A stretch of 64,000 nucleotides of DNA from the sequence record PZ154896.1; one strand, written 5' to 3'. Positions 17,102 through 52,317 of this stretch are shown one piece after another. The notes under the pieces were generated by a model. That model did no database searches. It was not told the DNA's origin and worked only from the letters and a program-made list of their open reading frames with translations. Source of the stretch: a phage. Each line of letters begins with the position of its first letter. Position 1 is the stretch's first letter. The position numbers and the translations under genes are program-made.

Positions 17102-18915
17102 TGGTGTTTAACCCTATGCATGATTTCTTTATTTTTACCGAGATTAAATCCGCGTTCGTTCGGATTTCCCAAATAACCGCATGTTCTTCTTATAGTATTC
17201 ATCTTTTTAGGATCAGTTTCTCCACAAACTGAACAAACAAATCCGTTTTCAGTAGGAGTCATTTCATGAGTACTTCCGCATGTAAAACATTTATCTACTG
17301 GCATATTAACACCAAAATAATCTAAATGTTGCGCAGCATAATCCCATACAGCCTCAAGACCTTTTAGGTTATTTTTCATATCAGGAAGTTCAACATAAGA
17401 AATGTGACCGCCTGTTGCAATGAAATGATATGGGGCTTCGCGAGAAATCTTTTCAAATGGAGTAATATTTTCTTCTACTGAAACGTGGAAACTGTTAGTG
17501 TACCAGCCTTTATCGGTGACATCTTTTACACTTCCATATTTTTCTGTATCAAGTTTACAGAAGCGATAACAAAGGTTTTCAGCAGGAGTAGAATATAAAC
17601 TAAAAGCAAATCCAGTTCTTTCAGACCACTGTTTAAGATGAGCATTCATTTTAGTTAAAATTTCTTGTCCAATATCACGACCGACAAGAATATTCAATTC
17701 GTGAATACCAATGTATCCCAAAGACACTGAACTTCTACCATTTTTAAATAACTCAATTATATCGTCATCAGGTTTAAGACGAACCCCGAATGCACCTTCT
17801 TGGTAAAGAATAGGAGCTACAGTTGCTTTAACACCCTTTAAAGAACTAATTCTACACATCAAAGCTTCAAAACACAGATCCATTCGTTCATTAAATAGCT
17901 CAACAAATTTCTGTTCATTGAATTGTGTTCCAATATAAGAATCTAATGCAATACGAGGAAGATTCAGTGTTACAACACCAAGATTATTACGTCCATCAAG
18001 AATTTCATTACCAGTCGAATCTTTCCATACACTCAAGAAACTACGACAACCCATTGGAGAAACAGGAATAGATGAACCGGTGATAGCTTTATTATTCTTA
18101 ACTGAAATAATATCAGGATACATTCTTTTGCTTGCACACTCTAGAGCAAGCTGCTTAATATCATAGTTCGGATCATCTTTATAAAGATTAACACCTTCTT
18201 CAACAAACATAACAAGTTTAGGAAAAATAGGAGTTATCCCATCGCGTCCAAGGCCTTTAATACGATTTTTCAGAATTGCTTTCTGAATCATTCGTTCAGC
18301 CCAGTCAGTTCCCATACCAAACGTAATTGTTACAAAAGGCGTTTGTCCGTTTGAACTAAAGAGAGTATTTACTTCATATTCATAAGCTTGGAATGCATCG
18401 TATACGTCTTTTTCTGTTTTAGATTGGGCATAATTCAACGCATCAGCGATTTGCCATTTTTCTGCATCTTCAACATGTTTAGCGTATGTGCGTTTAACAT
18501 AAGGAGAAAGAACTTTATCGACATTCGCAAATGTAGTTCCGCCGTACTGGTGTGAAGCAACCTGTGCGGTAATTTGTGCCATAATTGCAGTAGCAACGCC
18601 AATAGATTTAGGCGTTTCAATTTGAGCATTACCTAGCTTAAATCCATTCTCAAGCATCCCCTTTAAATCGACTAAACAGCAATTAGTAAATGGAAGAGCA
18701 GGAGAATAATCAATATCATGCATGTGAATGATTCCGCTTTCATGCGCATTCATAATAAAAGACGGGACCATATTTTTGGCAATGTGCTTAGACACAATAC
18801 CAGCCATAAGGTCCCGTTGAGTTGGAAAAACACGAGAATCTTTATTAGCATTCTCGTTCAAAAGATCTTTATTAGTTTTATGAATTAATCCTTCAATTTC
18901 TTTTTCAATTTTCAT
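17098..18915 (-). CDS. nrdD: anaerobic ribonucleoside-triphosphate reductase NrdD
   Basis: 605 aa, same length as T4 NrdD; C-terminal CFTCGSTH...CSVCG zinc ribbon and glycyl-radical region; uninterrupted. Confidence 0.95.
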   Translation of the reverse strand: MKIEKEIEGLIHKTNKDLLNENANKDSRVFPTQRDLMAGIVSKHIAKNMVPSFIMNAHESGIIHMHDIDYSPALPFTNCCLVDLKGMLENGFKLGNAQIETPKSIGVATAIMAQITAQVASHQYGGTTFANVDKVLSPYVKRTYAKHVEDAEKWQIADALNYAQSKTEKDVYDAFQAYEYEVNTLFSSNGQTPFVTITFGMGTDWAERMIQKAILKNRIKGLGRDGITPIFPKLVMFVEEGVNLYKDDPNYDIKQLALECASKRMYPDIISVKNNKAITGSSIPVSPMGCRSFLSVWKDSTGNEILDGRNNLGVVTLNLPRIALDSYIGTQFNEQKFVELFNERMDLCFEALMCRISSLKGVKATVAPILYQEGAFGVRLKPDDDIIELFKNGRSSVSLGYIGIHELNILVGRDIGQEILTKMNAHLKQWSERTGFAFSLYSTPAENLCYRFCKLDTEKYGSVKDVTDKGWYTNSFHVSVEENITPFEKISREAPYHFIATGGHISYVELPDMKNNLKGLEAVWDYAAQHLDYFGVNMPVDKCFTCGSTHEMTPTENGFVCSVCGETDPKKMNTIRRTCGYLGNPNERGFNLGKNKEIMHRVKHQ

Positions 18916-19385
18916 TTTAAACTCTTTCTAAGCTGCTTTTTGAATGAAGCTATTAATTGTGTTTTGGTATCAGATTCATTATATTCAAATCCTCTTTGAA
19001 GCATCTCAGCCATCATTTCCTCTTTACCTAGTCTTGAGAACTCTTTAGTTTTGTCTGGAACAAAATTAGGATGGATATTATTATCAGAATAATCTTGTTT
19101 CAAATAAGCAAGAAGAGCTTCAAGCCATTCGAGGTAGTCGACATCACGTCCTTTAAGACCGGAACGGTTGAACTTATGCTTCATTTGGCCTTCTGCTGCG
19201 TTGCACAGATTACAGAGTAATCCACGAACTCTACCGGCTTTTGGCCCGTTTAATTCATGGTCGTGGTCAAGATGGTTACCTTGAACATCAGGGTCTAATT
19301 CACGGTGGCAAATAGGACACTTACCATTCTGTGCATCATAAAATTTTTGTTTTTCTTCTTTATATTTTGCGCCTGATAATAACAT
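18912..19385 (-). CDS. 49: endonuclease VII (Holliday-junction resolvase) gp49
   Basis: 157 aa; near-identical to T4 gp49 from memory (CPICHREL...HLDHDHELNG...LLCNLCNAAEG). Confidence 0.92.
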   Translation of the reverse strand: MLLSGAKYKEEKQKFYDAQNGKCPICHRELDPDVQGNHLDHDHELNGPKAGRVRGLLCNLCNAAEGQMKHKFNRSGLKGRDVDYLEWLEALLAYLKQDYSDNNIHPNFVPDKTKEFSRLGKEEMMAEMLQRGFEYNESDTKTQLIASFKKQLRKSLK

Positions 19386-20479: not shown

Positions 20480-20739
20480 TTAAAATATTCTCGCAGTTGG
20501 TCAAATCCACCAATGTGACTTCCGTCAGGAGCAAACACTTGAGGCATAGTCAATCCGACTTGTGATTCACGTCCAAGCTTAACCAGAAGCTCAGCAATTT
20601 TCTCATCATCGAACACACCTTTTTCTGGCATAACATTAATGAATTCGAATGGCTGTTTCTTAACAGTCAGCAATCGTTTCGCATTATCACAATAAATGCA
20701 TTTATGAATAGTAGAGTCATACCCGTACACTTTAAACAT
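20476..20739 (-). CDS. nrdC: thioredoxin/glutaredoxin NrdC
   Basis: MFKVYGYDSTIHKCIYCDNAKRLL... near-identical to T4 thioredoxin from memory; start set to ATG 20737-20739. Confidence 0.88.
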   Translation of the reverse strand: MFKVYGYDSTIHKCIYCDNAKRLLTVKKQPFEFINVMPEKGVFDDEKIAELLVKLGRESQVGLTMPQVFAPDGSHIGGFDQLREYFK

Positions 20740-21145
20740 TATTTTTCCTTTCATCAATTAAATATGCAACGCCAAATACAATACATGTAATAAAACCTGT
20801 GATACAGATAGAAACCAACAACACTGTACCAAAGAACCAAATCAAGTTATCTTTAGTAGTTTGTTTGATATCCATCTCACGAATTTCTATAGCTATCGTA
20901 TCACCTTTATTAAGAAGCGTATAAAACGATGGTGATACATGCCTGTCAAAAACTCGACCTTGTTCATCTTTATAAACTGCAATAAATTCCAATTTAGAAT
21001 ATTTTCCTGTAGATTGACCTGAAATTAATTCCACTACCTCCACAGGAATTACTTTAGTTTCCATGTAAGTATTCTGGCTGTTCCAAATGAATGGAATGAC
21101 GGCAAAAACTAAAGCTGCAATAAAACAACGAAGGCTATATCTCAT
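20732..21145 (-). CDS. membrane protein
   Basis: 137 aa with N- and C-terminal transmembrane helices. Confidence 0.5.
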   Translation of the reverse strand: MRYSLRCFIAALVFAVIPFIWNSQNTYMETKVIPVEVVELISGQSTGKYSKLEFIAVYKDEQGRVFDRHVSPSFYTLLNKGDTIAIEIREMDIKQTTKDNLIWFFGTVLLVSICITGFITCIVFGVAYLIDERKNNV

Positions 21146-21450
21146 TATAATGTTCTCTCAAATTTGTGGAAGCATTTACGGCATTTCAATTTCAAGTTAT
21201 CAGTGGTCCAGTTAACCAGTTGGACTTGGATAGTTCCACATTCCGGACATGGATGTTTTGCTGCCGATTTGGCAGCATTTTCACGTCGTTCAACCATTTT
21301 CATGATTTCGTTCCATGCCGGAGTAACGAACTCTTCTTCACCGTGGATTTTATCTCGCTGAACAAATTCAATCTTTGAACTATCGTCAATAAACTTAACC
21401 AAGCTGTGATTAGTGCTCATGTCAATATCCTCTAAAAGACGTAGTTTCAT
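21145..21450 (-). CDS. zinc-ribbon protein
   Basis: 101 aa; CPECG...CRKC four-Cys pattern. Confidence 0.5.
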   Translation of the reverse strand: MKLRLLEDIDMSTNHSLVKFIDDSSKIEFVQRDKIHGEEEFVTPAWNEIMKMVERRENAAKSAAKHPCPECGTIQVQLVNWTTDNLKLKCRKCFHKFERTL

Positions 21451-22400
21451 TATAAAACCTCAATGGCATTTCGTAAACCATCAGCTTTTGCATTCAGAGC
21501 TTTTAATGATTTAGTTTGTTCTGCAATCTGGACTTCGACTTCTTTCAGACGAGATTTGAGATATTCGCGTTCTTCTCTTAAGTTATCAACTTTTTCTACT
21601 TTAGGTTCTTTAATAGGCTTAGGCTTATACGTATTAGGGTTCTTCAGCTTAATTTGAATACGAGAACTGTATAACATTGAACCGTTATCTTCGGATTCGT
21701 CGAACGTTTCAACAACATCCATAGTCTCTAACAATGTAATAAGTTTATAAGACAACGAACGAACGGTTTTGTTATGCTTATTAATTTCTTCAGCTTTCAT
21801 GGTACCGAGATTACGTGAGTAGTAATAAGGAACCTGGATATCAATTGACAATGATGCGTTACCATTACCAGTTGGTTTGAATACTGCAGTAACCCAATCT
21901 TTAACATGAACTTTATTTGTACGACCATCACCGCCTGTGAATAATTTACGTGAATGTTTAAAAAGCATATTCACTTGATTATTAAATTCACAAGCAAATT
22001 TATCAGCAAATTTAGTTTCAGGAATGGTAGATAACCAATCAGCTAAATGAGTCTTTTTAACATCGTTAATAATAGTAAATTCAACCAAATCAGTTTTAGA
22101 TGTCACAGATTTAATAAAGCTCGGCTTCATAAAGTTTTTAATGTTATCGCGAGCTACAGTAGAAGATAATAAACGAGAACGTTTGAACCATTGAAGCAGT
22201 GTCCCTAATGAATGAGAATACGCATTCTGAGTATCTTTACAGATATGATTTTCTTGACCTGTGTATGTACCAAAATCTCGAAGAATACCACTTACTACAA
22301 CTCGGTGTGGAACATCAAATCCTAATGAACCAGAAGCACGTTGGGCATGAACGTTAGCGATAAGACCTGCAAAATAATCAATGTAATGTGAACGTGTCAT
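21450..22400 (-). CDS. hypothetical protein with C-terminal coiled coil
   Basis: 316 aa; own upstream promoter cassette. Confidence 0.55.
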   Translation of the reverse strand: MTRSHYIDYFAGLIANVHAQRASGSLGFDVPHRVVVSGILRDFGTYTGQENHICKDTQNAYSHSLGTLLQWFKRSRLLSSTVARDNIKNFMKPSFIKSVTSKTDLVEFTIINDVKKTHLADWLSTIPETKFADKFACEFNNQVNMLFKHSRKLFTGGDGRTNKVHVKDWVTAVFKPTGNGNASLSIDIQVPYYYSRNLGTMKAEEINKHNKTVRSLSYKLITLLETMDVVETFDESEDNGSMLYSSRIQIKLKNPNTYKPKPIKEPKVEKVDNLREEREYLKSRLKEVEVQIAEQTKSLKALNAKADGLRNAIEVL

Positions 22401-22428
22401 AATATTTTCCTCTCGTTAAGATAAAAAG

Positions 22429-22458
22429 ATTATACTCCAACCATCCTTGGTTGTAAAC
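22429..22458 (-). promoter_or_regulatory. sigma70-type early promoter (TTTACA-17-TATAAT) with internal palindrome
   Basis: Minus-sense TTTACAaccaaggatggttggagTATAAT; CAACCA/TGGTTG inverted repeat in spacer. Confidence 0.5.
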
Positions 22459-22462
22459 TGAT

Positions 22463-23395
22463 TTATGATTTTAATGCATTCATTGCGTTAAAAAGTTTAG
22501 AGTACTGCAACTGGAGCTTAGTAACTACTTGTTGAGCATCACGAAGCTTAGCTTGTGCTTTGTCAAGTTCAACAGACAGTTGGTCCACAGTGGCTTTGAT
22601 TTGATTATAATAGTAATCTTCGGCAGGAAGAAGTCCGTTAGAGATTTCCAGTTTAGTCGACGGTGTGCCGTTAAACATAACAGGTTGTGCTGAAGCTGAA
22701 TTAATCTTACCGATAGTCGGGGCGACAATAATTGACGCTTCGAACGTTGCATTTTCCTTTTTAAGATTTTTATAATATTCAGAGTCTTTGTGCCACCATG
22801 GCGCAGGAACCTTTTTACCAATAGATACACGAGCCTGGATAGCGATATGGCCCTTATTCTTGATAATGTCTATAATATTAAGCTCACGAGAATAAATTGC
22901 TTTAATCTGGTGAATATTATCACCTAACACTTCCAACGCTTGGTGGAATACACGAGCAACGTTATCATTCTTAGGTTTATACGTAAGAGTGAACTCGTTC
23001 TCACTGATAACCATGATTTCTAACTTATCGTAAGTATATTTCAAATGTTTCATGTTAATTGCTTGAGGACGAATACGAGAAGCAATGGCCATCAGATTGT
23101 TAAGGTTATTTCTGAACTGTTTAGCAAAATATTGTCCATAACCGCCGATACAAAAATTACGAAGTTTCTGTTTGGCTAATAAACGGCTGAACTCACCATT
23201 TTTAATGAACTCTTTAACGGGTGTGTTAGTAACGCATTCAAATTGAGTAAACTTACGAGAATTAATCCCATAATATGAACAGATTTCCTCAATCTCTTCA
23301 GGAGTCTTTACAGGCATACGGATAGGATTAGGACCTGGGGTATATGCGTTCGAGGTAAATTCTTTGATAAGTTCTCTACGTGTAATAGAAGCCAT
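22463..23395 (-). CDS. hypothetical protein with C-terminal coiled coil
   Basis: 310 aa; own upstream promoter cassette. Confidence 0.55.
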   Translation of the reverse strand: MASITRRELIKEFTSNAYTPGPNPIRMPVKTPEEIEEICSYYGINSRKFTQFECVTNTPVKEFIKNGEFSRLLAKQKLRNFCIGGYGQYFAKQFRNNLNNLMAIASRIRPQAINMKHLKYTYDKLEIMVISENEFTLTYKPKNDNVARVFHQALEVLGDNIHQIKAIYSRELNIIDIIKNKGHIAIQARVSIGKKVPAPWWHKDSEYYKNLKKENATFEASIIVAPTIGKINSASAQPVMFNGTPSTKLEISNGLLPAEDYYYNQIKATVDQLSVELDKAQAKLRDAQQVVTKLQLQYSKLFNAMNALKS

Positions 23396-23421
23396 TTTAT
23401 ATTCCTCATGTTGAAAAATTT

Positions 23422-23451
23422 ATTATACTCCAACCATCCTTGGTTGTACAT
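23422..23451 (-). promoter_or_regulatory. sigma70-type early promoter with internal palindrome
   Basis: Near-identical copy of the 22429-22458 cassette. Confidence 0.5.
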
Positions 23452-24446
23452 CATTCCTTAAGAAGTTTTACTACTTGAATAAGATTAGCTCGTTCTGTTT
23501 TATTTTTACTGTTTAAGCCTGCTAATCGTGAGATTTCATCATCAGTCTGTTGAATAGTTACATTAAGTTCGTTAATCAAAGCTTCAAAGTATTTGATTTG
23601 CTCAGCATGTTTTGATTCAAATTTCTGAACCGGAATAACGTCTTGGTTTAGTTCATCAATAAGGTCTTTAAGAGCATCTTCTTGGTTGATATCATATTCA
23701 ACTTCTTTTATTTCTTCAACGAGCTCGTCTTTATATCTAACGTCTTTTAGTCCTGGTGCTGGTCCTGAAATCTCTTCTTTAAGAGTACAAACATATCCAA
23801 TACGGTATCCAATGCCGTCTCGCTTGATATCAACTTCGTCAATAAATCCACAATGTTTAAGACCAGAGCCGATTAGGTCAAAATATCCTTGACGTCGTCC
23901 TTCAAACGTTACACGAACTACTAAGACAGTTTTACCTGCAACCTTTTGAAGCTCACATTTATAAAAGTCTGTTGAACCTGAATAACGTGGATGAGTTTTA
24001 AAGTTCATCTGACGATCTAGGCCCATTTGTAAACGTGCTGATACAGCCAGAAAACGTGTTTGGTTCTCGTTAAGATGAGCAACAATCCATTTCAAAGGCA
24101 TTTTACACTGTTCACGACCGAACAAATCAGTACGTCCTAGATTACGCAGGATGTTGTTAGAGTTAATCATCGACAGAACGTTAAGTTTATTCAGCGCGCT
24201 GAAGATTCCATCGGCCATTGATTTTCCGTAACCTTTACACGCTTTAATAAGCGCTCGCGGTAGATTAGTATAGATTTCAGACGGCATATGAAAATCAAAT
24301 TTACTAGTCAGTAATTGATGAACTTGGATAGCAATTTGCTCATAATTAAGTGCTCTGCGATCATTATGGTCTTTAAACCACACTTTAATCTGTGAAGCAC
24401 ATAAACCGTTAATTTCATGTTTTACCGCATCAGATGTAATGCTCAT
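23451..24446 (-). CDS. hypothetical protein with C-terminal coiled coil
   Basis: 331-aa ORF. Confidence 0.55.
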   Translation of the reverse strand: MSITSDAVKHEINGLCASQIKVWFKDHNDRRALNYEQIAIQVHQLLTSKFDFHMPSEIYTNLPRALIKACKGYGKSMADGIFSALNKLNVLSMINSNNILRNLGRTDLFGREQCKMPLKWIVAHLNENQTRFLAVSARLQMGLDRQMNFKTHPRYSGSTDFYKCELQKVAGKTVLVVRVTFEGRRQGYFDLIGSGLKHCGFIDEVDIKRDGIGYRIGYVCTLKEEISGPAPGLKDVRYKDELVEEIKEVEYDINQEDALKDLIDELNQDVIPVQKFESKHAEQIKYFEALINELNVTIQQTDDEISRLAGLNSKNKTERANLIQVVKLLKE

Positions 24447-24482
24447 AACTATTTCCTCAGATTGAATTGGAACTCAAAACCA

Positions 24483-24505
24483 TTATAACCCGTCCTTGGG
24501 TAAAG
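24483..24505 (-). promoter_or_regulatory. putative early promoter (TTTACC-17-TATAAT)
   Basis: Minus-sense TTTACCcaaggacgggtTATAAT. Confidence 0.4.
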
Positions 24506-24508
24506 CGT

Positions 24509-25036
24509 TTATGCGTGAACCGTCTTTAAACGTTCTTCAAATTTACGAAGAGTACTAATACGTTCTGATTTCTGTTTTGTATAGTTTGCAATACGTTCTG
24601 AAGTGAGAGCGTATCGTTCGTTTACTGTTTCTTTCATGAAGTCAGGGATTTCACGAGAAGCTTTAATTTCATCAAACTTATCGAGTACTGCCTGGTCTTC
24701 AGCGATTAAATTTTCGTACATCTCGATATCTTTCTTGATAAACTCGATATCTTCCTGGGTTACTTTGGATAAACGAGATGCTTTATCCTTTTTGTACTGC
24801 TCGTTAGTTTCACGAGACCAGAATAATGTACGTTTTTTGTTAGTGTTTTTGTAGACTTCCACAATTCCAACTGAATCGATGATAGCAATCCAATTCCAGC
24901 GAGATTTGAAAATCTGACCTCCGTCCACGGTAATCTCGTTACCATAAGCAACGTCATTAAAGAACTTGCTTTGTGCTTCAGATTTAAATTTACCGTCGTT
25001 ATAATTTACCAGGTTGAAAATATCTTTAGCGTTCAT
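24509..25036 (-). CDS. hypothetical protein
   Basis: 175-aa ORF. Confidence 0.5.
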   Translation of the reverse strand: MNAKDIFNLVNYNDGKFKSEAQSKFFNDVAYGNEITVDGGQIFKSRWNWIAIIDSVGIVEVYKNTNKKRTLFWSRETNEQYKKDKASRLSKVTQEDIEFIKKDIEMYENLIAEDQAVLDKFDEIKASREIPDFMKETVNERYALTSERIANYTKQKSERISTLRKFEERLKTVHA

Positions 25037-25054
25037 GTTTTACCTCCAGTAGTT

Positions 25055-25093
25055 GATAGGTCTATAATAACACAACCATAGACCTTGTAAACA
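25055..25093 (-). promoter_or_regulatory. early promoter in AGGTCTAT/ATAGACCT palindrome (GTTTACA-17-TATTAT)
   Basis: Family B cassette; see findings. Confidence 0.5.
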
Positions 25094-25094
25094 A

Positions 25095-40703: not shown

Positions 40704-41660
40704 TTATTTGAAAGGTTTTACCATATGGAAATTTTGTTTGAAACGTTTGACGTAATCATCATGTCCTAAGCTTTGGTACATACTTACTACTTTGCTGTAG
40801 TTTTCCCAGGCATACTCACGGAACCAACCAGAGGTGATGCTTGTACAGACTTTTTCTAATGCCATCATAAAACTGGCTTCAGGGTTAATTTTAAAGTCAT
40901 TAGGAATCTGAGAACGTTCTAATGCTAGTACACATGATTCTTCGTATACACCGGCCAATTTGACCATTTCTGGTAATGATTCGAACTTCTCACGTGAGGT
41001 CATGACTTCAGAACCGTCTTTCATATAAAATGTATACGCTGGACGGTCTGTTAGTGCAATGGCTTCATGAATAGTATCATGGTCATATGTATAGATATCA
41101 TCTTTAAAGAACGCACTTTTAGAAGTGTCAAGAACCGGGTGAGCATAGTTCAAGGTTTCTTTCTGGCGTTTCAGCATAATTTCAGTAAGTTCATCGTTCA
41201 GTGTAACACCTTTACCACGAAGATACTGAATATGGTTCATAGTCTTTAAAAAGAACGGATTATTTTTCTTGAAACGATGAGACATCTTAATTGCAAGACA
41301 TATCTCAGGAGTTGCCCAGTAAAACCCATTCAAACGGTCTTTAGACAAATGTTTCTTGGCGTATTTTAAAAGGTCATAAGAAGACGTGAAATCTTCAGGA
41401 GTGAGTTCACCGACTAATTCACGGACATTAGTGATTGCCGGAACAATATACGCTTCAAAATGAGTTTCGCGTCCATTATGGAAGCATTTGAAAACTTGGA
41501 CATCAGGGTTATCTTGATGAACATATACACCCATCATTTGATTTTTGAATGTATTCCAAGAACCTTGGTCTGCAATAAAGTCCCAGTCACTATTTTTGAT
41601 AGCGTTAGAATCAATAAGACCATGATAGTGAAGTGCACGAGAACCAATAACTAACATCAT
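40704..41660 (-). CDS. hypothetical protein
   Basis: 318-aa ORF, no motif I can assign. Confidence 0.55.
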   Translation of the reverse strand: MMLVIGSRALHYHGLIDSNAIKNSDWDFIADQGSWNTFKNQMMGVYVHQDNPDVQVFKCFHNGRETHFEAYIVPAITNVRELVGELTPEDFTSSYDLLKYAKKHLSKDRLNGFYWATPEICLAIKMSHRFKKNNPFFLKTMNHIQYLRGKGVTLNDELTEIMLKRQKETLNYAHPVLDTSKSAFFKDDIYTYDHDTIHEAIALTDRPAYTFYMKDGSEVMTSREKFESLPEMVKLAGVYEESCVLALERSQIPNDFKINPEASFMMALEKVCTSITSGWFREYAWENYSKVVSMYQSLGHDDYVKRFKQNFHMVKPFK

Positions 41661-45079: not shown

Positions 45080-45232
45080 TATTTCAACGTCACCTTTAGC
45101 TGCTTTATAACCTTCAGCCCAAGATACAACAGAGTTTTTATCCGAGGATTCAAATTCAGGCATTGGGCTTTCACCAATATTCACACAGTATGTTTCTTCA
45201 TTTTCATCGAACCAAATAATTAAAGTAGTCAT
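45068..45232 (-). CDS. small hypothetical protein (54 aa)
   Basis: Start moved to ATG 45230-45232 (MTTLIIWFDENEE), downstream of the promoter cassette. Confidence 0.4.
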   Translation of the reverse strand: MTTLIIWFDENEETYCVNIGESPMPEFESSDKNSVVSWAEGYKAAKGDVEIIYI

Positions 45233-45252: not shown

Positions 45253-45290
45253 TGATAAGTCTATAGTAACACCGTCCTTGGTGCTTGTAC
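45253..45290 (-). promoter_or_regulatory. early promoter cassette (family B)
   Basis: GATAAGTCTATAGTAACAC plus TGTACA -35-like. Confidence 0.4.
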
Positions 45291-45291
45291 A

Positions 45292-45795
45292 TCATTTATT
45301 TTTAATTTTGCAAATTTTTTCTGCTTCAGCAATTGCAGCGTCAATGATGCTTTGTGCAATTTTATTACTAGTTGACCTGGCAATCACACTAAGAACAATT
45401 TCTTTTTCTTCACCACCCCAACCCCAAGTCCTTTGTTCGTGGGTACCTTTAACTACAGCTGAAACTTCAACAGAACGTCCACCATCAGAAGTTTTAACAT
45501 CTACAACCCAATCACCGTCTTTCTCTTCTACCCTTGATTTATCCCAAGAAATACTAATATATGATTCACTGTCAATAGAAGTCGCCGGGTTTTTCTCTAC
45601 CGTAAGACCTTCACTTTCCAGCCATTCAATTGTATTTGCGCATAAATCCGAAGAACACCTAATCGGAAACCGGCAAGATTTTTCACCTTTAGCTGCAGCG
45701 TTATACATCTTTTCTAAAATACGCTTTTGCACGTTTTTAAAAATAGTTTCAGCAGATTCTTCAGATTTTTTATTCAGTTCAGTGTAAAGACTCAT
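45292..45795 (-). CDS. hypothetical protein
   Basis: 167-aa ORF. Confidence 0.5.
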   Translation of the reverse strand: MSLYTELNKKSEESAETIFKNVQKRILEKMYNAAAKGEKSCRFPIRCSSDLCANTIEWLESEGLTVEKNPATSIDSESYISISWDKSRVEEKDGDWVVDVKTSDGGRSVEVSAVVKGTHEQRTWGWGGEEKEIVLSVIARSTSNKIAQSIIDAAIAEAEKICKIKNK

Positions 45796-51495: not shown

Positions 51496-52317
51496 TTAAG
51501 ATTTCCAAACAGTATTCGCAGAGAAACGTTTTCCTTTTGACATAAACTGCTGAGTAGGTAACATGATTATGTTAGCCCAGTCTTTAGGAGCGATTTCTGT
51601 TATTGTTCCTCTAATGTGGCCTGGCAGGTATGCTTTAATCATTTTGTCAGCACCTTGAAATCCTTTCACCTTGCTCCAGTCTATCTTCAACTTTGTGTTA
51701 TTAGTAATAGTAGTTGTGCTAGCATATTGCTTCAGCAATTCTTCAAGAAACTGTTGTCGTGCTTTAGGTGGGATATAGTGCAAGTTTAACCCATACATCA
51801 AATTATGTTTACCTAATCCTAAATAAATAATCAAAGGATATCGGTCCCAGTATGGCAGAGTATCTTTATGTTTAGCATCATACACGTAGGTATAAATTTT
51901 GCCTGGCGTAGGCTTGACTACTTTATGACCTTTTACACTTTTCTTAATTGTTTCAACAAACCACTTAGATGATTTGTTGTTTACTGCTGCACCTTCATTT
52001 CTAATCTTTTCTCGTATTGAACTGCGAAACGAGTTTATCATCAGAAGTTGACGTTCTTGCTTATTGAGTTTATTTTTAGGTTTAGATTCAAGTGTTTCAA
52101 TTTTCTGTGCAGTCTTAATAGATGATGCATATCTAGACATTGCAGATGTAAACGACGAGTATTTTATTCCTTTTGATTCTGCAAATGCTTTTGCAGTGAT
52201 TCCTTTCTCTTTAGCTTTCTTGTATTCTAATCCTATCTCAATCCATTTTCTTTCATTCATAGACTGAGCAATCTTAGGGGCTTGTACGCCTTCAGATATA
52301 ATTTGGAATATGCTCAT
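51496..52317 (-). CDS. 2: DNA end-protector protein gp2
   Basis: 273 aa (T4 gp2 is 274 aa); basic; adjacent to gene 4. Confidence 0.85.

Follow-up and report, generated by a model that had tools for sequence, protein, structure and literature searches.

A role in overcoming host defence has been described for one gene of the nrdC accessory region of phage T4. A T4 clone lacking nrdC.5 lost infection of Escherichia coli ECOR17, infection by the nrdC.5-less T4 returned when the host gene dsr1, for a SIR2-domain defence protein, was deleted, and plasmid expression of nrdC.5 restored plating of the T4 mutant on MG1655 carrying dsr1 (PMC9391042). Gene 49.2, which is nearby, inhibits the OLD defence (PMC13096335). 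As described in two reports (PMC10973363, PMC10981675), the phage accessory protein DSAD1 binds a SIR2-type NADase defence and thereby blocks it. This is a functional analogy only, drawn from those descriptions; the target given there is DSR2, whereas T4 NrdC.5 counters Dsr1. In T4-like phages, cassettes known as PeSL (promoter-early stem-loop) and PmSL have also been described, in which an early promoter has a stem-loop between its -35 and -10 elements (T4/PST consensus TTTACW-N17-TAYWAT) and of which there are Mot-box variants (Arbiol et al. 2010, PMC2839356; Comeau et al. 2014, PMC4122927). The gene families, the PeSL/PmSL cassettes and the anti-Dsr1 role of T4 NrdC.5 were thus known already. 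Here we consider three tandem genes, designated wA, wB and wC, in a 64-kb (64,000-nucleotide) stretch of phage DNA from sequence record PZ154896.1, hereafter the window. We conclude that they are ancient paralogs of one superfamily, and we regard as probable the overall explanation that this superfamily is confined to T4-like phages, that its members have their own promoter-hairpin cassettes and recombine through them, and that they serve in counter-defence.

The window belongs to a T4-type myovirus with a gene layout like that of RB69 (Mosigvirus), and phages TH58 and phi25-307 match its 3-kb three-gene region at 97-98% identity. The three genes are all on the minus strand, wA at 21450-22400 (316 amino acids, aa), wB at 22463-23395 (310 aa) and wC at 23451-24446 (331 aa). 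These sizes and positions confirm an earlier note on this DNA, which had reported three open reading frames of 310-331 aa at 21450-24446; its placement of them in the nrdC accessory region is also supported. The gene order of RB69, nrdC.8 - nrdC.6 - nrdC.5 - nrdC.3 - nrdC.2 - nrdC.7 - nrdC, matches that of the window, and the RB69 equivalents of wA, wB and wC are already annotated nrdC.3, nrdC.5 and nrdC.6.

We established the identity of each gene by BLASTP against the T4 proteins and by comparison with protein family collections. The wA protein is the ortholog of T4 and RB69 NrdC.3 (57% identity to the former); it matches phrog_1435 with an expectation value (E) of 1e-103, a family that also holds T4 NrdC.3 and NrdC.4, and has the precomputed Pfam assignment PF26897. 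The wC protein is a homolog of T4 and RB69 NrdC.6 (29% identity to T4 NrdC.6, E 1e-18), matches phrog_2257 (E 1e-127) as the family of T4 NrdC.6, and has the precomputed Pfam assignment PF26899. The wB protein is a distant homolog of T4 NrdC.5, at 24% identity over 308 aa. Both are in phrog_2351 and both match DUF7235 (PF23882) from end to end, wB with 367.9 bits against a cut-off of 30 (E 6e-110; residues 15-309 on profile positions 1-307) and T4 NrdC.5 with 420.6 bits (E 5e-126). The PF23882 model was unmatched by wA or wC, and T4 NrdC.3 gave a C-terminal match only, at E 0.18.

The gene context of wB and of T4 nrdC.5 is alike, with an nrdC.6-type gene on one side and an nrdC.3/4-type gene on the other, and both proteins have a coiled coil ending in ...KL(F/N)NA(M/L)NAL(K/N). 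Besides the low identity, wB differs from T4 NrdC.5 in being 30 aa shorter and in lying behind an early PeSL of its own, whereas T4 nrdC.5 follows nrdC.6 after a gap of 7 nucleotides (nt) once a frameshift in T4 is allowed for. T4 also has a fourth member, NrdC.4, which the window phage lacks.

In many phage records in GenBank, the product name given to homologs of wA, wB and wC, as well as of nrdC.8, nrdC.10 and nrdC.11, is "thioredoxin". None of these has a thioredoxin-family match, and wA, wB and wC likewise gave no match to the thioredoxin and glutaredoxin families of Pfam. The product name seems to derive from the locus label "nrdC.x".

The three proteins have a common architecture, in which an N-terminal helical part with two motifs would be followed first by an alpha/beta body, small and variable, and then by about 50 residues of C-terminal coiled coil. 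In an alignment that includes the T4 paralogs, the N-termini have in common a motif 1, ...SRLLSxxxxxxxLxNF, and a motif 2, FxxxFxxNxxxLxxxSRLxxG, and the C-termini end in LxNAxxxLK; the consensus that we infer is S-R-L-x8-L-x-N-F, F-x3-F-x2-N-x4-L-x4-R-L-x2-G and a terminal K-L-x-x-A-x-x-x-L-K. For the coiled coils we used an ad hoc scan of heptad a and d positions, comparing each protein with 200 shuffles of its own sequence. Each has a single unbroken register that beats 200 of 200 shuffles, as the earlier note's description of heptad-rich C-termini would lead one to expect: residues 267-316 in wA (coding segment 21453-21602, minus strand) and 258-310 in wB (22466-22624, minus), with at least seven heptads each, and residues 278-311, about five heptads, in wC, whose helical and heptad segment as a whole runs over residues 278-331 (23454-23615, minus). 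AlphaFold models place long terminal helices at wB 258-309, with low confidence, and at wC 281-330 (helices 281-309 and 313-330), and the order of secondary-structure elements is similar in the wB and wC models, the former having a mean predicted local distance difference test score (pLDDT) of 40.6. The pLDDT of the wC model is 67.7, with residues 1-140 at about 80-88.

The coiled coil that is present in wC is lost from NrdC.6 of the T4 reference by a 1-nt deletion. In NC_000866 (about 51996-52089) the gene reads GAGCTG-ATATTT where four close relatives have GAGCTGAATATTT, and the protein has 275 aa, as against 295 aa in those four, where the nrdC.6-nrdC.5 gap is 7 nt. The missing coiled coil (...SKAKSEREKLIKIVDLLKS*) can be read in the 70-nt "spacer" annotated upstream of T4 nrdC.5. 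The deletion may be a true frameshift, or the reference may have been mis-sequenced here.

Pairwise BLASTP among wA, wB and wC returned zero matches, the identities being below about 20%; hhalign on shallow protein-database alignments of the three families was non-significant, and PHROGs and Pfam hold the three families apart. These results suit the view that the genes are unrelated open reading frames of similar size, whose coiled-coil tails were acquired independently and whose apparent homology is an artefact of composition or of the heptads. Combined MAFFT alignments of the three families were unstable, with misregistered motifs, and were kept out of structure prediction. A mixed-profile hidden Markov model (HMM) search of 1.84 billion representative proteins gave 10 matches, namely close relatives or fragments from T4-like phages and one metagenomic protein of 511 aa (P0061); it showed that the three families are very narrow and gave no bridge between them. 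The match of P0061 to the mixed profile (E 1e-6) we judged to be chance or compositional; the protein has about seven repeats (...FVAKFNNNLNTLLAS...) that resemble motif 2 (FAKQFRNNLNNLMAIAS). A scan of IMG/VR found 7 loci only.

Richer profiles linked NrdC.3/4 with NrdC.5/wB, with hhalign E values of 6.5e-4 (local) and 2e-6 (global) over about 230-255 columns and a column-shuffle z of 9.8, and the same two motifs fell in register in three of three pairwise profile alignments. All three families are joined by a bridge family, one gene of 309-346 aa found in Enterobacter phage IME523, Edwardsiella phage PEi20, Pectobacterium phage PM2, Klebsiella phages Marfa and JEC, and Serratia phage X20, six T4-like phages of about five lineages. 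In PEi20, PM2 and Marfa the bridge gene lies directly upstream of nrdC.2, which is the nrdC.3 position. Among 269 open reading frames, the HMM of each of the three families picked out the IME523 protein, at E 1.4e-3, 1.9e-8 and 1.4e-7. In hhalign, the profile of the six bridge sequences matched NrdC.3/4 at 97.3% (E 2e-11), NrdC.5/wB at 98.2% (E 3e-14) and NrdC.6/wC at 91.7% (E 8e-7), while an unrelated 318-aa phage family, used at full length as a control, reached 0.3%. With the coiled coil removed the matches were 94.8% (E 5e-8), 74% (E 3e-5) and 55% (E 1e-4). Column-shuffle z-scores were 13.4, 12.8 and 5.5.

A Foldseek search with the wC model against BFVD lends independent support to the family link, within the limits of a predicted structure. 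Twelve neighbours had E values of at most 1e-3 and probability 1.0; 12 of the 12 are proteins of T4-like phages, and nine are of about 300-335 aa. The full-length matches include the bridge proteins of IME523 and PM2, at 12-15% identity, E 2e-7 to 5e-5 and a template-modelling (TM) score of about 0.4. The persistence of the bridge matches once the coiled coil is gone, the column-shuffle scores, the consistent placement of two motifs in the three pairwise alignments, the Foldseek matches and the nrdC.3 position of the bridge gene all speak against unrelated genes with convergent tails, which we consider quite improbable.

The conclusion that the three proteins are paralogs is least secure for wC, whose link to the other families is the weakest, and several results count against it. 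Two direct profile comparisons with NrdC.6/wC were non-significant (z = 3.5 and 2.3), and without the coiled coil the bridge match of NrdC.6/wC spans the two-motif region only. The wC model is of moderate quality and its TM score to the phage neighbours is modest, as given above, and the wB model is unusable. The earlier note had proposed alignment and structure prediction as checks on a common origin; pairwise alignment came up empty where the bridge-family profiles revealed homology, and of the two structure models only that of wC was good enough for a fold search, with a TM of about 0.4 to the bridge proteins. We found no statement uniting NrdC.3/4, NrdC.5 (DUF7235) and NrdC.6 as one superfamily in the literature searched.

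Two other families were considered as additional members of the superfamily and rejected, namely the 318-aa RB69ORF134c family (window 40704-41660) and a 256-262-aa neighbour of the bridge gene, for which hhalign gave at most 0.9%. The latter is a highly conserved protein of the single-copy phages that adjoins the bridge gene (in IME523 it is near it), at 18555-19325 in locus L009, 5503-6291 in L012 and 6221-6994 in L013, and that carries the segment ...APTWGxDDRPHAPFDGYLWENELGEVEAYHAGSYLPY....

Each of the three genes is preceded on the minus strand by a promoter-like cassette that fills the intergenic spacer. Cassette 1, upstream of wA at 22401-22462, has a -35 element TTTACA (22452-22457), a -10 element TATAAT (22429-22434) and between them a hairpin CAACCA-AGGA-TGGTTG (22438-22453), followed by the Shine-Dalgarno sequence GAGAGGA; on the coding strand the spacer reads TAA-ATCAG-TTTACA-ACCAAGGATGGTTGGAG-TATAAT-...GAGAGGAAAATATT-ATG. 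Cassette 2, upstream of wB at 23396-23450, has TGTACA (23445-23450), a hairpin (23431-23446) and TATAAT (23422-23427), and reads TGA-TGTACA-ACCAAGGATGGTTGGAG-TATAAT-...GAGGAATATAAA-ATG. Cassette 3, upstream of wC at 24447-24508, has a MotA-box-like GCTTTA (24501-24506), a predicted hairpin ACCC-AAGGAC-GGGT (24488-24501) and TATAAT (24482-24487), and reads TAA-AC-GCTTTA-CCCAAGGACGGGT-TATAAT-...GAGGAAATAGTT-ATG. The earlier note had remarked on near-identical cassettes before the first two genes and a related one before the third, as we find: cassettes 1 and 2 have in common a 27-mer, TACAACCAAGGATGGTTGGAGTATAAT, of which there are exactly two copies in the 64-kb window (22429-22455 and 23422-23448, minus strand), where shuffles lead one to expect 0.

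From their sequences, we predict that cassettes 1 and 2 are early promoters of the sigma-70 type. TTTACA-17-TATAAT scores 11 of 12 and is the best site in a 10-kb scan, and TGTACA-17-TATAAT scores 10 of 12. Cassette 3 has no usable -35, and GCTTTA-N13-TATAAT looks like a MotA-box middle promoter, comparable to PmSL. A hairpin in the promoter spacer is predicted for three of three cassettes. When seven distinct cassettes are compared, AAGGAY is constant in the loop and the 4-6 bp stems covary (CAACC/GGTTG, ACCC/GGGT, CACC/GGTG, CCAC/GTGG, AGCC/GGCT, TACC/GGTA), with 94% of cells paired and both sides changing in four of five pairs; of 500 shuffles, 0 reach the score. The same cassette design is found upstream of T4 nrdC.3, nrdC.4 and nrdC.7, in the last case in the MotA-box form seen in cassette 3.

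Three considerations temper this assignment. Promoter-like matches are not enriched across the region as a whole (29 found versus 32.9 expected), so the promoter case is built on where these particular sites lie and on their repetition and conservation; promoter activity is deduced rather than observed; and the hairpins in the covariation set were selected for having stems, which inflates the statistic and makes it supportive only. The earlier note's view that each copy has its own promoter holds in that each gene has a promoter-like cassette, while the cassettes are of PeSL type and occur elsewhere and in T4 as well, and the third is of the MotA-box class.

These cassettes resemble PeSL elements in several respects. 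They are intergenic, have TTTACA or TGTACA-N17-TATAAT, place a stem-loop in the stretch that separates -35 from -10, and lead into a Shine-Dalgarno sequence and an ATG; they lie in a hyperplastic region, form direct repeats that flank an accessory gene of variable presence, and include a MotA-box variant. The window hairpins are unlike the published elements in having a conserved AAGGAY loop, covarying stems of 4-6 bp and no adjacent U-tract. A terminator role like that described for the RB49/phi1 elements is doubtful here, because a consensus scan saw neither a U-tract nor a terminator-like site there, and we dropped intrinsic termination as a role for them.

Some further observations on the cassettes may be recorded. 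The conserved hairpin loop AAGGA is itself Shine-Dalgarno-like. GGAG, the recognition motif of the T4 RegB endoribonuclease, directly follows the hairpin in three cassettes (TGGTTGGAGTATAAT; TGGCTCGGAGTATAAAT), those at 22429-22455 and 23422-23448 and that of the T4 nrdC.3 upstream spacer. A further PeSL lies about 21 kb away, at 45262-45295 (minus strand), and reads TGA-TGTACA-AGCACCAAGGACGGTGT-TACTAT, with GAGGAG next and then an ATG at 45232; on the left it is flanked just as the wB cassette is, and its stem, CACC/GGTG, is unlike those of the other cassettes. The MotA-box cassette is directly downstream of nrdC.8 in both T4 and the window phage, the gene behind it being nrdC.7 in T4 and nrdC.6-like here.

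The identical 27-nt cores upstream of wA and wB could be taken as a sign that the genes arose by recent tandem duplication, with each copy taking its promoter along. The divergence of the proteins, which are less than about 20% identical, refutes this, and cassettes of this design also stand at unrelated loci and include another promoter class, so the identity of the cassettes reflects homogenisation or mobility rather than co-duplication with the genes. Moreover, recent duplication is excluded by the fact that homology surfaces only via the bridging family and the fold search; wA, wB and wC each have separate orthologs in T4, RB69 and JS10, and the duplications are therefore older than these genera. 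We give the recent-duplication explanation next to no credence. In calling the locus a duplicated module, the earlier note was right about a single superfamily with a common architecture, while the duplication is not recent and leaves no trace in BLASTP. The comparison of copy number that it had suggested gives a range of 1 to 4: one in the bridge phages, two in F2-type phages, three in this window, RB69 and JS10, and four in T4. Tandem arrays of two to four are found in the T-even, RB69 and JS10 lineages, and a single member, immediately upstream of nrdC.2, in many other T4-like genera.

Since cassettes 1 and 2 have identical 27-nt cores, they are direct repeats flanking wB. We constructed in silico the 557-nt junction that a crossover between them would leave, in which the end of wC leads through a single chimeric cassette into the start of wA, and searched for it in the GenBank phage collection. 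At least 80% of the wB-less junction is covered in 21 phage records, and in at least 20 of the 21 it is contiguous, at 95.5-98.4% identity; the carriers include F2, FL18, JM17, AV109, AV114, AV118 and p000v. In phage F2, a wC-type gene is followed by a 57-nt spacer and a wA-type gene, without wB, and the spacer is the predicted chimera, TGA-TGTACAACCAAGGATGGTTGGAGTATAAT-CTTTCTATCTTAACGAGAGGAAAATATT-ATG. The contiguous junction and the chimeric cassette of F2 lead us to conclude that the nrdC.5-like gene is gained or lost as a PeSL-bounded unit. Comparative genomics thus shows that the cores flanking wB serve as recombination sites, and either gain or loss fits these data. In the literature searched we did not find this exact cassette-bounded polymorphism of an nrdC.5-like gene.

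With regard to function, the earlier note's "function unknown" is out of date for the wB family, given the counteraction of Dsr1 by T4 NrdC.5 (PMC9391042). We infer that wA, wB and wC belong to a family of counter-defence proteins, because infection of E. coli with Dsr1 is restored by T4 NrdC.5, a protein that falls with wB in one Pfam family and one PHROG. This reading is the best supported on account of the strong divergence of the genes, their variable copy number and dispensability, and the anchor provided by T4 NrdC.5. The three are among the most diverged genes in the block between the window and T4 (24%, 29% and 57% identity), where NrdC.10 and NrdC.8 are at 78-82%. On this basis, wA, wB and wC would be early or middle accessory proteins, whose conserved coiled coil may serve for oligomerisation and whose fast-evolving variable body may bind and neutralise a host immune protein.

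The principal alternative is that the three are true paralogs with some other business in the cell, being host-takeover or regulatory proteins that modulate, for example, host nucleotide metabolism, replication or the envelope, with the anti-Dsr1 effect of T4 NrdC.5 being indirect or peculiar to it. A phenotype is known for one member of one branch only, and the conserved residues are structural ones (hydrophobic residues, N and R) that are silent on a target. PADLOC models of defence and anti-defence gave zero matches, and the proteins resemble no solved structure, PDB sequence searches being empty. That alternative sits poorly with the dispensability of the genes, whose presence or absence differs between near-identical phages, with a divergence that is very fast relative to that of neighbouring genes, and with the proximity of proven anti-defence genes, a pattern typical of arms-race genes. 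We consider it unlikely. The counter-defence reading has its own weak points: anti-Dsr1 activity of wB would follow from family membership at a rather low identity to T4 NrdC.5, direct experiments concern T4 NrdC.5 only, so that a role for wA and wC is presumed by extension, and oligomerisation through the coiled coil is predicted from the heptads.

If the counter-defence reading is right, it may be extended, quite tentatively, to a more specific proposal. NrdC.3, NrdC.4, NrdC.5 and NrdC.6 could form a cassette-borne repertoire of inhibitors, each with a coiled-coil scaffold and a hypervariable N-terminal body, in which different paralogs or alleles are matched to different host defence sensors and members pass between co-infecting phages by PeSL-bounded exchange. 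Dsr1 would then be the target of T4 NrdC.5, while NrdC.3, NrdC.4 and NrdC.6 might have others, such as NADase-type effectors, and the exchange of members would be integron-like, minus the integrase.

Two neighbours of the three genes deserve mention. A 137-aa membrane-protein reading frame that adjoins nrdC at 20732-21145 (minus strand) is a homolog of NrdC.7, at 42% identity to the T4 protein, the T4 gene being located between nrdC.8 and nrdC.6. On the upstream side, a gene at 24509-25036 (minus) encodes a 175-aa protein that is 82% identical to T4 NrdC.8 and has a promoter-hairpin cassette of its own at 25037-25094, with TTTACA-16-TATTAT and a stem that overlaps the -10. The C-terminus of this protein (residues 146-173) is weakly heptad-like, being matched by 7 of 200 shuffles, and no relation of it to wA, wB or wC was detectable.

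From this analysis come a working hypothesis and an evolutionary setting for nrdC.3 to nrdC.6, T4 genes that have long been "hypothetical", four in number. The analysis also draws attention to the widespread mislabelling of such genes as thioredoxins. Relatives of nrdC.3-nrdC.6 occur in hundreds of coliphages that are candidates for therapy, and one branch is tied to the evasion of Dsr1. Phage pairs that are close to isogenic, the window type versus F2, FL18 or AV109, are supplied by the comparison. The nrdC.5-like gene is a probable determinant of host range, and its precise presence or absence between identical PeSL cores offers a clean case, found in nature, of shuffling by cassettes.

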